A stretch of 60,627 bases of DNA from an uncultured Gammaproteobacteria bacterium (GCA_964536205.1 CAZHVT010000003.1:12271-72897), one strand, 5' to 3'. Numbered from the stretch's first letter, positions 60 through 5,032 are shown. Notes: generated by a model not told the origin, from the sequence alone. Made by a program: numbers and translations.

Positions 60-464
60 TTACTCAAAGAACTTTAGTTGCGGATGTATTCGTTCTGGAT
101 CACGCTGAATTCTTTCTATCTCATTTTTCTTGTGTTCGATTTTTCGTCCAAGCGTTCCGATGATTCGCAAGTATGTTTGTGAAGGCGTTCCGGGTCCTAA
201 CTTTCGCCCTTCCTCTCTCATCTGCGTGGTCAGCTCCTTGACTTCTTTTTTCAATTGCGTGATTTTGATTTTTAATTCGTCATGCCATGGCTGAAATTCA
301 TTAACACATTCGATCCAGTGATTGAGATTTGGTTTTTCCCAACCGTCTTGTAAGCCTCTGCATTCAAATGCATCTGCACAACAGTATGGGCAACTAATGC
401 GCTTTTTCGTAATTGATGTGCTACTTTTTCTTTTGAGGAAAGGAATTTTTTTTGGGACTAACAT
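60..464 (-). CDS. Small Zn-finger (CxYCC..C..C..PWH) + coiled-coil protein, paralog family member 1
   Basis: ORF with Cys cluster CPYCCADAFEC...ECVNEFQPWH then heptad-like KKEVKELTTQMREE; RBS AGGGG upstream; paralogous to 4586-5032. Confidence 0.5.
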   Translation of the reverse strand: MLVPKKIPFLKRKSSTSITKKRISCPYCCADAFECRGLQDGWEKPNLNHWIECVNEFQPWHDELKIKITQLKKEVKELTTQMREEGRKLGPGTPSQTYLRIIGTLGRKIEHKKNEIERIQRDPERIHPQLKFFE

Positions 465-498
465 GCTTCACCCCTGATTGTAAAAGATCTCACTCACT

Positions 499-556
499 AT
501 CTGATGTTGATGTCTCCACATCAGATAACAAGTTCCGAGCGAGCATACCCGCTCGG
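499..556 (-). repeat. Island composite element R2 (subtype A), upstream of the 60-464 gene
   Basis: Same hairpin + palindrome architecture as R1/R3 with a few substitutions. Confidence 0.8.
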
Positions 557-572
557 ATTGCTGTGTTATTTT

Positions 573-1319
573 CTATTCGTTTTGTTTTATGAGTAGCGAC
601 AGTCTATGTGCGATCCACGTGAGCTGTTCTACTTTATTGTGCTCTTGGTTATATCTGCTCCACAGATATGGTTCACTGCGCGAAGATGCATAGATTTGTG
701 TTCTTGCATCATCTCGTTTCGTAGATGCCTCTTGTATGTGTTGTGTGATATCTGGTATTGCTGCCTGCGCTCGTTCGGATAAGGTTTGTTTTCTGCGTCT
801 GGTATTTTTTTGTGTGCAGAAGTGACAGATTTTCCAGAATGTTTCTGAAGTGTTATTTTTAAATTGTTGAGTATACAGTGTGTCGCGGCAGTATCGGCAC
901 GGAATATCAATGAAATCCTCATCCTCTGCGGCATTTTCTGGTAGTCGGTAGTGCGCTGGATTGGTTACTGGTGGGGGATTGTCTGTCCATCCATTCTCAC
1001 GCCATTCAGCTTGCAGCTTTTGTAGTTGTGATACTTGCACGCGGGCGCTTTTCAGTGATGCTGAGCACTCTCTTTGTCGCTGGTGAGAAGCAAATCTCAT
1101 GCTCGCGTGATTCGTGTTGAGAAAATCGTTGAGTCTGTTGATGGCTCTGGTGATGTGTGTGTGCGTGTGTAATCCGGGTTCTTTCCTCAACAGCGGACAG
1201 AAGTTTGACGTGTAGGAGTGACGTGTGATGTTGAAGTGTTCCCATATCCAATGTGGGATTTTGTCTTCCGAGAAGGTGATTTCACCTCGACATGCCGGAC
1301 AATGGAGTTCTTTCTTCAT
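573..1319 (-). CDS. Cys-rich hypothetical protein (CPAC..IPHW and CRYC..CHFC motifs), distant paralog of the Zn-finger family
   Basis: Start moved to MKKELHCPAC (1319) because the longer ORF runs into repeat R3. Confidence 0.45.
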   Translation of the reverse strand: MKKELHCPACRGEITFSEDKIPHWIWEHFNITRHSYTSNFCPLLRKEPGLHTHTHITRAINRLNDFLNTNHASMRFASHQRQRECSASLKSARVQVSQLQKLQAEWRENGWTDNPPPVTNPAHYRLPENAAEDEDFIDIPCRYCRDTLYTQQFKNNTSETFWKICHFCTQKNTRRRKQTLSERAQAAIPDITQHIQEASTKRDDARTQIYASSRSEPYLWSRYNQEHNKVEQLTWIAHRLSLLIKQNE

Positions 1320-1343
1320 GTTACTTCCTTGTAAGGACCAATT

Positions 1344-1401
1344 ATCTGATGTTGATGTTTCCACATCAGATAAAAAGTCCCGAGCGAGCGTACTCGCTCG
1401 G
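1344..1401 (-). repeat. Island composite element R3 (subtype A), between the MVP gene and the 573-1319 gene
   Basis: Identical to R1. Confidence 0.8.
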
Positions 1402-1407
1402 ATGATG

Positions 1408-3209: not shown

Positions 3210-3881
3210 TTAACTCACTTCTACTTGCTTCATAAGTTCATCGAGGGTGTTGTGTACGACGTGCATATACGTTTTCCATTCCACAGCGTCGCTTTTCACT
3301 GTTTGCCCGTGCATGCCTGAAAACACGTGGAGTAACTTACCAGCAATCAATAAGCCTGTGCTGGGAGGTATTTCTTGGGCGATTGCGCCGATTACGCACA
3401 ATGCACCTGATACGAAATTGGAATGGAAGTTTCCTTGTTTGCGATCTTCATTGCTTGGTTGTGGATTGTGCTTATAGATTGCAAGGAATTTTTTGTGTTC
3501 GTTTTCGATCTCGTAGATGATGATGTCCCACGATGGTGCTTTGCGGTCTATCTGTGTTAAAACTGCTTTCAGATCCCTGAATACCTGCAAATGTTCATCT
3601 TTAAACGCATTCGTGTCTCTTGTGTTATGTGGTGAATTCAGAAGAAAGTCCATGAGTTCTACGATTTGTTTCTTTGGTTCTGGGTATGTGGAGGGGGCAA
3701 TCCTTTTTATGACCTGAAGCATGCCGAGTAAGTGGTCGTTTATCATGGCGCAGCAGTGCCTGAGCGATGTTTCTAGACGATTGTCTCTAGATGATTTCAT
3801 CGTGTCGTGTGTCTTACAGTAGATTCTGTGACTTTGAATGAGGGTGTCTAGTATTGGCGTCCATGATTTTGTTGAGTACAT
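3210..3881 (-). CDS. Hypothetical protein (223 aa)
   Basis: Long ORF bounded by elements R4/R5; no recognisable motif. Confidence 0.5.
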   Translation of the reverse strand: MYSTKSWTPILDTLIQSHRIYCKTHDTMKSSRDNRLETSLRHCCAMINDHLLGMLQVIKRIAPSTYPEPKKQIVELMDFLLNSPHNTRDTNAFKDEHLQVFRDLKAVLTQIDRKAPSWDIIIYEIENEHKKFLAIYKHNPQPSNEDRKQGNFHSNFVSGALCVIGAIAQEIPPSTGLLIAGKLLHVFSGMHGQTVKSDAVEWKTYMHVVHNTLDELMKQVEVS

Positions 3882-3956
3882 GTATATGCCTCTTTACAGC
3901 TTCTTGTTATCTGAAGAGTCTGAAATATGGATGTAAGATCGCTTCTGCGTGTGAGT

Positions 3957-4030
3957 TGTTTTGTAATGAACGTTTTATCTGACAATGAACTTCATTATCA
4001 GGTGAAACGCCCGAACCCGTAGGTTCGGGG
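3957..4030 (-). repeat. Island composite element R5 (subtype B)
   Basis: Near-identical to R4. Confidence 0.8.
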
Positions 4031-4035
4031 ATTTT

Positions 4036-4215
4036 TTATTGAGCGGCTTTGGCGATTGCCTTGTCTTGTTCTGCTTTGCGGTGGTCGAGCCACTTGTTGA
4101 GATAATCTCTGATCCACTCGATTTCGTGTCCTAGTTCGATTAGCTTCTCGAGGAGTTCTCTGATTTCTCGTCGATAGTGACTGCTGTACTCGTTATTGAT
4201 GAGTCTTTTTGCCAT
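4036..4215 (-). CDS. Small helical hypothetical protein (59 aa, MAKRLINNEY...)
   Basis: Internal ATG start chosen; downstream of R5-bounded unit. Confidence 0.35.
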   Translation of the reverse strand: MAKRLINNEYSSHYRREIRELLEKLIELGHEIEWIRDYLNKWLDHRKAEQDKAIAKAAQ

Positions 4216-4368
4216 CTTTTTTCCTTTGTGGTCTTTTGTTGTTACTCGAAAAAAAGCAATTGAGGGTGGATGTGTCTTTTTCTCACATGATCTTTGAGCC
4301 ATTCAGTTAGTTTTTTCATTAACTTCGCAGTCATCTATTTTTTATCCTTGTATGATCGTGACTAACGT

Positions 4369-4626
4369 TTATGGCATACCTCCTTGATATCTGACGTGAT
4401 TTTCTTCGACATTTCTGGGCAAGGTAATTCTGTATCCTTCATCACCTCGGTATGGGCTTCCGTCGGAAACTTTGGATGATGCGGGATGTTGTTTTTTATC
4501 CTCTTCACCATCCTTTTTTTTATCGAGATGTGCGTGCACACACGCAAGAATTTCTTTGTTAGAGCATCCTGCGTTTTTGATCAAGTCAATTGCACTGGTC
4601 AGAAAGCCTTTGTTTTTCTCGTTCAT
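4369..4626 (-). CDS. Hypothetical small protein (85 aa)
   Basis: ORF overlapping the 3' end of 4586-5032 by 41 nt. Confidence 0.3.
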   Translation of the reverse strand: MNEKNKGFLTSAIDLIKNAGCSNKEILACVHAHLDKKKDGEEDKKQHPASSKVSDGSPYRGDEGYRITLPRNVEENHVRYQGGMP

Positions 4627-5032
4627 CTTCTTCTCCCAATTCTTGTTTTTTTTGTGATCTATTTTTTACTTTTTCTCGTGCTTCTCTTTGTAGTCTATCC
4701 AAGTTGTTTTTAGCCTTTCGTTCTTGCGCTTCTAAACTTCCCGTTTCACGACGAAGCTCGTGTTTGATTGAGGATGGTTGAATAGGATCATCTATCAAGC
4801 CTTTTTTTCCAGATATGATGCTATTCAGCCAACTTAGTTTTTTGTTGAGTTTTTCGCATTCACGTACAAGTTTGATATGCCACGGTTCGTTTTCCGAATC
4901 GCACGTGATGTCCATAACTTTCCATCCACCATACATGCAGCGATAGAATAACGAGGTTTCGACTGATCTGTCATTGCAGTATTGGCATTTTTTTATGACC
5001 TTGCGTTGTTCTTGCTTGTTCCTGTTAGACAT
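4586..5032 (-). CDS. Small Zn-finger (CQYC..C..C..EPWH) + coiled-coil protein, paralog family member 2
   Basis: Start moved to MSNRNK (5032) to avoid repeat R6; CxYC-x-C-x-C-PWH spacing matches the 60-464 product; charged coiled-coil tail. Confidence 0.5.
   Translation of the reverse strand: MSNRNKQEQRKVIKKCQYCNDRSVETSLFYRCMYGGWKVMDITCDSENEPWHIKLVRECEKLNKKLSWLNSIISGKKGLIDDPIQPSSIKHELRRETGSLEAQERKAKNNLDRLQREAREKVKNRSQKKQELGEEDEREKQRLSDQCN

Follow-up and report, generated by a model that had tools for sequence, protein, structure and literature searches.

Targeting of cargo has precedents in the vault vPARP INT domain and in the cargo-loading peptides of encapsulins, whose signature is a terminal peptide shared by unrelated neighbors of a shell gene. 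In T4-like phages, a repeated terminator/promoter module known as the promoter-early stem-loop (PeSL) flanks and shuffles orphan genes (PMC2839356, PMC4122927). Features reminiscent of both systems are found in a 9-kb array of small, co-oriented minus-strand genes around a major vault protein (MVP) homologue, the right-hand part of which occupies positions 1-5400 of a 60,627-nucleotide stretch deposited under an uncultured Gammaproteobacteria bacterium (GCA_964536205.1, CAZHVT010000003.1:12271-72897; hereafter the window, meaning the whole stretch that was analyzed). The subject of this report is a pair of proteins encoded in this array, P1 and P6, which display a Cys-rich knuckle followed by a predicted helical hairpin and, judged from their sequences, are diverged copies of one lineage-restricted gene. 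A first-pass annotation of the window had grouped them with a third product, P2, as three paralogous zinc-finger and coiled-coil proteins that might regulate the palindromes of the island.

Two Paralogous Cys-Rich Proteins

The open reading frames (ORFs) of P1, P2, and P6 are all present on the minus strand (Table 1), each with a Shine-Dalgarno sequence 4-8 nt ahead of its ATG. When the six frames were compared under a codon model built from core genes, the annotated one ranked first for all three, with scores of ~0 vs 0.2-0.4 in the core genes themselves. The start of P6 varies among gene callers, giving a product of 109, 116, or 148 residues; the conservation of CxYC with P1 and an AAGGGA Shine-Dalgarno sequence support ATG 5032 as the preferred start. 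BLASTP aligned P1 with P6 at 26% identity over 109 residues (E = 1e-6), and the observed Smith-Waterman score was reached by 0 of 2000 composition-preserving shuffles (z = 9.4). This signal resides in the knuckle, since the Cys-rich 45 residues alone gave z = 6.6, compared with a nonsignificant z = 1.9 for the tails alone. The likeness exists at the protein level only, with no counterpart at the DNA level, which together with the Shine-Dalgarno spacing and the best-of-six frames argues that P1 and P6 are real genes.

The motif shared by the two proteins, CxYC-x6/12-C-x17/11-C-x5-PWH, corresponds to the one described in the first-pass annotation, except that the gap between the third and fourth Cys of P1 is 17 residues rather than the 10-12 proposed. 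The pattern C.YC..C..C..PWH, and even the tripeptide PWH, occurs in P1 and P6 only among the 1077 ORFs of the window and the adjacent 10 kb, the latter taken from a metagenome contig (L001) that is 99.97% identical to the window over 6 kb. In P1 numbering, the invariant columns are C25, Y27, C28, G41, W42, C53, P59, W60, and H61, while the third Cys (C35 in P1, C32 in P6) is shifted by a two-residue indel in the alignment. A metal site is plausible because four Cys and one His have been kept at so low an identity, and the knuckle of ~37 residues is consistent with a structural metal site comprising these four invariant Cys and the invariant His. Zinc ribbons and treble clefs are built from two CxxC/CxxH knuckles; P1 and P6 have one CxxC, two lone Cys, and one His, in a region where AlphaFold2 (AF2) assigns a predicted local distance difference test (pLDDT) score of <50. 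Readings of the Cys/His motif as an HNH nuclease or a ZAS anti-sigma factor were rejected on inspection, given that the spacings do not fit. Both N-termini are rich in Lys and Arg beside the knuckle, the arm of P1 spanning residues 5-22, and the isoelectric points (pI) lie at 9.2-9.5.

The coiled-coil tail attributed to these proteins survives in part. Heptad periodicity is found in two segments per protein, with a score of 0.93 for residues 62-84 of P1 (reached by 1% of shuffles) and of 0.80 for P6 (matched by 9%). A long dimeric coil, however, is disfavored because the Gly/Pro turn, which is conserved in P6 as KKGLIDDPIQPSS, breaks the helices into an antiparallel hairpin in the AF2 model. 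The prediction for the tail is thus a helical hairpin, antiparallel and within one chain, in place of a long parallel dimer. In this model, computed from a two-sequence alignment, residues 1-56 of P1 have pLDDT <50 and the fold of the knuckle is not modeled. A Foldseek search of the P1 model against the PDB returned generic helical hairpins at E > 1 and none at E <= 0.001.

P2 does hold the strings that had suggested a third paralogue, C7PAC10..I21PHW24 and C141RYC144-x19-C164HFC167, and AF2 lays the protein out as two units, in each of which a helical pair comes after a CxxC stretch (helices at residues 53-108 and 159-247, the latter with pLDDT 82-93). Its membership of the family was nonetheless rejected, given BLASTP values of E = 0.4-1.3 against P1 and P6, a P1+P6 hidden Markov model (HMM) that missed P2 at E < 10 among the 1077 ORFs, an hhalign probability of 0.8%, and full-length shuffle tests with z <= 1.6. 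A value of z = 3.8 for the P1 knuckle against the first 60 residues of P2 comes from a post hoc comparison only. The likeness of P2 is one of architecture only and, since no relationship is detectable, the paralogues number two rather than three. A better candidate than P2 for a third member, if still a weak one, is g133, in which the Cys ligands are lost (z = 3.3-4.3; hhalign 0.5%); its N-terminus is P6-like, as the second-best island protein after P1, and its C-terminus is P1-like.

The C-terminal likeness of g133 to P1 lies in an octapeptide. The pattern HPQ[LE][KM][FY]F[ERH] stands at the extreme C-terminus of 3 of 603 ORFs, namely P1, g133, and g126, which are otherwise dissimilar, basic proteins of ~130 residues. 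Selection at the peptide level is indicated because the codons of the octapeptide differ synonymously among the three. The partner of such a peptide may be the MVP homologue (by analogy with encapsulin cargo loading), the beta clamp, or a protease for which it would serve as a degron.

The first-pass statement that no known family is recognizable has held through exhaustive sequence, profile, and library searches. In word-index searches covering 5.8 billion clusters, P1, P6, and P2 each matched nothing but themselves, and exhaustive HMMER searching of 1.84 billion representatives (~15 billion proteins) with a P1+P6 profile retrieved only P1 and P6. For all three proteins, Pfam (hmmscan, E <= 1), NCBIfam, and PDB sequences yielded sub-threshold coiled-coil noise only, and neither PADLOC nor PHROGs gave an anti-phage defense or phage family at E < 0.01. 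Genome, metagenome, and viral contigs scanned on the basis of MVP contained no orthologous island, and viral contigs yielded none to the P1+P6 alignment either. The DNA pattern of the palindromes produced 18 chance matches in metagenomes, some within unrelated coding sequence and with no island proteins nearby, and no match in viral contigs. When phage genomes were searched with tblastn, MVP found only SPFH-domain matches in huge phages and P2 found nothing. The P1/P6 family is new by sequence and, with all other P1-bearing contigs being 99.9-100% identical, is known from a single species-level population.

Hairpin Modules, Transcription Signals, and Layout of the Array

Eight repeated intergenic modules divide the array into transcription units. 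The two or three palindrome subtypes noted earlier resolve into two types, which split the array into halves: type A in five copies (three of them in the window), ahead of P2, P1, g225, a PNP gene, and g64, and type B in three copies, ahead of P6, g223, and MVP. Within the 60-kb window, the modules are confined to the island. They measure ~65-100 bp and are found beside unrelated genes, although copies of the same type share 89-100% identity. In gene sense, each is composed of a GC-rich hairpin followed by a T-run and then an AT-rich hairpin, with a Shine-Dalgarno sequence and ATG 20-90 nt further on.

The AT-rich element is a hairpin of ~20 bp with RNA-fold z scores of -4.9 to -9.6. In the aligned modules 86-91% of cells are paired (86% across the eight copies), and all slid controls collapse. 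Four pairs are changed on both sides, including columns 32/69, which display U.G, G-C, A-U, and U-A, and compensatory changes are also found in the outer stem beyond the palindrome core. Because complementarity is kept over ~20 bp by such changes, the AT-rich hairpins suit an element that folds as RNA or as single-stranded DNA better than they suit the half-sites of a dimer on double-stranded DNA (dsDNA). LexA and NrdR boxes were rejected by inspection as readings of the palindromes. An integron/attC origin was likewise rejected: the genes called in the 10 kb to each side include no integrase, and on inspection the modules contain neither the R'' RYYYAAC nor the R' GTTRRRY core.

The GC-rich hairpins, with their T-runs, score as terminators, and those of type A resemble the intrinsic terminators of the host, the nrdB terminator having the same stem, the same tetraloop, and the 'GACTTTTT' style; terminator-like sites number 20 vs 6.8 expected. 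Near-consensus TTGACA-17-TAnnAT promoters, together with a canonical terminator, are found at the ends of the array but not in the modules. The best promoter-like sequence of type A is CTGATG-17-GATAAT (~8 of 12 positions), and M1 alone passes a 9-of-12 promoter scan, with CTGATA-18-TAAAAT. An island-specific factor acting at the modules is plausible because type A units follow terminators without a near-consensus sigma-70 promoter. Two readings are available: either these units need such a factor, or they are expressed by read-through and processing.

Ahead of the first gene of the array stands a leader with a putative S-adenosylmethionine (SAM) aptamer, which scored 30.9 bits against RF00162, below the gathering score of 44.4 (E = 6e-5 to 6e-4), in a full-length match that keeps the core motifs. 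A PNP_UDP_1 gene behind a type A module (Pfam 2e-24) displays, by inspection, motifs like those of MtnN, a methylthioadenosine/S-adenosylhomocysteine nucleosidase, and is notable beside the SAM-riboswitch-like leader.

Table 1. Positions of genes, protein regions, repeated modules, and leader elements of the array, in window coordinates unless given for contig L001
Feature	Coordinates	Strand	Remarks
P1	60-464	-	134 residues, pI 9.5; basic N-terminal arm, Cys-rich knuckle, predicted helical hairpin, HPQLKFFE tail
P1 Cys-rich region	282-392	-	residues 25-61: C25-P-Y-C28, C35, G41W42, C53, P59W60H61
P1 antiparallel helical hairpin (predicted)	102-290	-	helices 59-87 and 96-121, turn KLGPGTPS; AF2 pLDDT 80-93
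P1 C-terminal octapeptide HPQLKFFE	63-86	-	
P6	4586-5032	-	148 residues, pI 9.2, ATG at 5032, no HPQ tail; P1 paralogue
P6 Cys-rich region	4877-4987	-	residues 16-52: C16-Q-Y-C19, C32, G36W37, C44, P50W51H52
P2	573-1319	-	248 residues, Cys/His-rich orphan
P2 C4 motif C141RYC144-x19-C164HFC167	819-899	-	zinc ribbon/treble clef-like by motif alone; AF2 pLDDT <50
MVP homologue	1408-3063	-	551 residues; context, outside the P1/P6 family
g223	3210-3881	-	ORF, paralogue of g225
g88	4036-4302	-	ORF
g85	4369-4626	-	ORF
g74	5136-5360	-	first gene of the array
g225	L001 10560-11237	+	paralogue of g223
g133	L001 11237-11638	+	weak third-member candidate
PNP_UDP_1 gene	L001 11746-12504	+	MtnN-like motifs
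g64	L001 12942-13136		weaker pair with g85
Octapeptides of g133 (HPQLMYFR) and g126 (HPQEKFFH)	L001 11612-11635, 13680-13703	+	
M6, type A	1-55	-	downstream of P1, cut by window edge; complete in L001 10408-10504
M5, type A	498-558	-	upstream of P1; GC terminator hairpin 534-557, T-run, AT-rich hairpin 498-528; RNA fold z = -5.7
M4, type A	1343-1403	-	upstream of P2; RNA fold z = -9.6
M3, type B	3134-3212	-	upstream of MVP homologue
M2, type B	3960-4038	-	upstream of g223
M1	5056-5134	-	upstream of P6; type B palindrome with type-A-like GC hairpin; RNA fold z = -7.0
Remaining two modules	L001 11647-11743, 12848-12944		off window
SAM-I riboswitch-like aptamer	5532-5649	-	ahead of g74, head of array
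Leader promoter TTGACA-17-TACTAT	5696-5668	-	
Leader terminator-like hairpins	5519-5503, 5458-5440	-	

On L001 the array runs past the start of the window, with g225 and g133, then the MtnN-like gene and g114, and finally g64, g60, and g126. No module separates P6, g85, and g88, which probably constitute a single transcription unit; the 3' end of P6 overlaps the g85 ORF by 41 nt (4586-4626) in another frame. The g223 and g225 products are paralogues (BLASTP E = 8e-21, 24% identity) that match no known family and are rich in His and Cys; each has 13 His, and C22, C44, C162, H42, H153, and H210 are invariant. Likewise, g85 and g64 form a weaker pair (z = 4.6). The pairs P6/P1, g223/g225, and g85/g64 were probably duplicated together in one ancient block duplication. 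The MVP homologue, at 551 residues, is shorter than eukaryotic MVP and was recognized in Pfam by MVP_shoulder (5.4e-28), Vault_3 (2.8e-13), Vault_4 and Vault_2 above their cutoffs, and Band_7. It has ~4 vault repeats and a shoulder/SPFH domain, along with a long helix rich in Ala, Glu, and Gln, and no close relative was found when genome, metagenome, and viral contigs were scanned with its own peptide words.

The remainder of the window is ordinary chromosome, with nrdAB, dnaX, cysS, ligA, gatA, pilM, and tRNAs. Because LigA shares 85% identity with its counterpart in a 'Parcubacteria group bacterium' metagenome-assembled genome, and further matches are to Paceibacterota/Patescibacteria, the host is assigned as a marine Parcubacteria bacterium of the candidate phyla radiation (CPR). 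Three large ORFs at 13220-16720 (+), 21609-24593 (-), and 43184-45448 (+), encoding 1166, 994, and 754 residues, have no Pfam match at E <= 1e-5. GC skew is strongly positive (0.2-0.4) over plus-strand genes and ~0.06 over the minus-strand island, and the codon usage of island genes, the MVP homologue excepted, is atypical relative to core genes.

Possible Roles of P1 and P6

The single most likely mechanism, which we put forward tentatively and with low confidence, is that P1 and P6 bind the hairpin modules of their own island. Binding of RNA or of an extruded hairpin is somewhat more likely than classical dimeric binding to a dsDNA operator, because the modules behave as folded hairpins of ~20 bp with compensatory changes. 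The knuckle would bind a metal, probably zinc; the basic arm and knuckle together would contact nucleic acid, and the helical hairpin of the protein would serve oligomerization or contact with a partner. The likeliest targets would be the module hairpins between terminator and Shine-Dalgarno sequence, P1 being directed to type A, P6 to those of type B, and binding could alter the antitermination, processing, stability, or translation of cassette mRNAs. The support is circumstantial: basic arms lie beside a putative metal knuckle, and two paralogues accompany two module types, each encoded behind its own (P1 behind type A, P6 behind type B). The lack of any recognized DNA-binding or regulatory domain in the other island proteins also counts in favor.

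Several observations weigh against module binding. The correspondence between paralogue and module type has a chance probability of ~0.47, and the same type A/B split is displayed by g223/g225 and g85/g64. G.U pairs favor the sense strand only weakly (8 vs 3 events). P1 and P6 have no homology to any nucleic-acid-binding or transcription-factor family in Pfam, NCBIfam, or the PDB, and the octapeptide of P1 looks like a protein-protein docking peptide for a partner held in common with g133 and g126. The riboswitch-like leader and its canonical promoter could control the array without dedicated proteins. Finally, the orphan genes flanked by PeSL in phages are cargo, not regulators of the repeats (PMC2839356).

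This last precedent leads to a reading of slightly higher, though still low, probability, in which P1 and P6 are fast-evolving orphan cargo of a hyperplastic cassette array, with a role that involves neither the palindromes nor MVP, for example in episymbiont-host interaction or anti-defense, and the modules are no more than portable terminator/promoter units and points of recombination. The failure of every search to find a homologue, codon usage that departs from that of core genes, near-identical modules (89-100% within a type) around unrelated genes, and paralogues and shared terminal peptides suggestive of shuffling are all accommodated, with PeSL as the model (PMC2839356, PMC4122927). 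Such a reading names no mechanism, however, and the array sits in a chromosome between core genes and holds a housekeeping-type MtnN-like gene. Its modules, moreover, are without the consensus sigma-70 promoter that defines PeSL, and PADLOC and PHROGs offered no match to a defense or phage family.

Doubtful, though worth weighing, is the proposal that P1 and P6 serve a vault-like assembly based on MVP, as its accessory, cargo, or adaptor proteins, onto which assembly the helical hairpin and the HPQLKFFE peptide of P1 would dock, the knuckle being structural. Their genes are located in the same co-oriented array beside the MVP homologue, and exactly three island proteins share an HPQxx[FY]Fx C-terminus, with codon differences that indicate selection on the peptide. 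P6, however, is without this peptide, which is not family-defining for that reason, and the same residues also fit the C-terminal beta-clamp consensus QLxLF (PMC4549789) or could be a degron. Bacterial MVP homologues are not known to build cages or to take up cargo, and the preprint 10.1101/872010 states that nothing is known about what these proteins do.

The arrangement implied by the first-pass annotation, in which the paralogues would be three (P1, P2, and P6), each a zinc-finger repressor that dimerizes through a coiled coil and acts on ATCTGA-N-TCAGAT operators in dsDNA, is unlikely. The palindromes do overlap the sole possible promoter site of type A, where -35-like CTGATR and -10-like GATAAT are 16-17 nt apart, and the proteins do have basic arms. 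Against this, P2 is unrelated, the tail is modeled as an intramolecular hairpin, and no DNA-binding fold or family was detected; furthermore, complementarity over ~20 bp with compensation in the inner and outer stems is not needed for two half-sites. Very unlikely is a vault-like ribonucleoprotein system in the CPR episymbiont, in which the MVP homologue would supply the shell, P1, g133, and g126 would be docked through HPQxxFF, the P1/P6 knuckles would bind the module RNA hairpins, and a SAM-responsive leader would act as the switch. A DksA/TraR-like zinc finger and coiled-coil hairpin in the secondary channel of RNA polymerase is scarcely credible: DksA (1tjl) and DksA2 (4ijj) are among the Foldseek matches to the P1 hairpin and likewise combine a Cys cluster with an antiparallel coiled coil, but these matches are not significant (E ~2) and stand amid generic hairpins (the seryl-tRNA synthetase arm, designed proteins), Pfam zf-dskA_traR is not matched, the domain order is reversed, there is a single CxxC, and the turn has no acidic DxxDxA tip.

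If P1 and P6 do bind the modules, they would represent a new small zinc-knuckle nucleic-acid-binding fold and would give a CPR bacterium a regulatory circuit complete in itself; gene regulation in the CPR is, to our knowledge, almost unstudied. If instead P1 docks on the MVP homologue via its peptide, it would provide a first handle on what bacterial MVP homologues do. The value of the locus comes mainly from its context, in which a CPR genome combines an MVP homologue with cassettes that are PeSL-like but lie outside phages, a possible SAM riboswitch, and a shared C-terminal peptide.

Comparison with Known Systems

Like DksA and TraR, its nonsignificant structural neighbors, the P1/P6 pair comprises small proteins with a Cys-based metal site, putative here, and an antiparallel two-helix coiled coil. 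The site is N-terminal in P1 and P6 instead of C-terminal and has the form CxxC..C..C..H, as opposed to CxxC-x17-CxxC. No sequence or profile match connects the two groups, and the tip of the P1/P6 hairpin is not acidic.

The C-terminal peptide invites two comparisons. With the beta-clamp motif QLxLF, the sequences QLKFF-E, QLMYF-R, and QEKFF-H agree in Q1, in F5, and in the hydrophobic or aromatic character of position 4 (PMC4549789); they differ in having Glu at position 2 in one protein, and the invariant His-Pro before the Gln falls outside the consensus. With encapsulin cargo peptides and the vPARP INT domain, the common element is a short C-terminal peptide on unrelated proteins (P1, g133, and g126) beside a shell-type gene. 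The peptide itself is unlike known loading peptides, P6 is without it, and a shell formed by the MVP homologue is putative here.

The PeSL cassettes share with the array repeated modules of ~70-100 bp, each with a terminator stem-loop, an AT-rich segment, a Shine-Dalgarno sequence, and an ATG (PMC2839356, PMC4122927), as well as co-oriented, database-orphan genes that the modules flank and that show signs of shuffling. The differences are that the present array lies in a CPR chromosome, with nrdAB, dnaX, cysS, ligA, gatA, and tRNAs in its flanks, rather than in a T4-like phage, and that the AT-rich part is a hairpin of ~20 bp instead of a consensus sigma-70 promoter (~8 of 12 positions in type A). 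Among described systems, the array most resembles the PeSL cassettes in the hyperplastic regions of T4-like phages, which constitute its closest analogue, with recombination at the modules being putative here.

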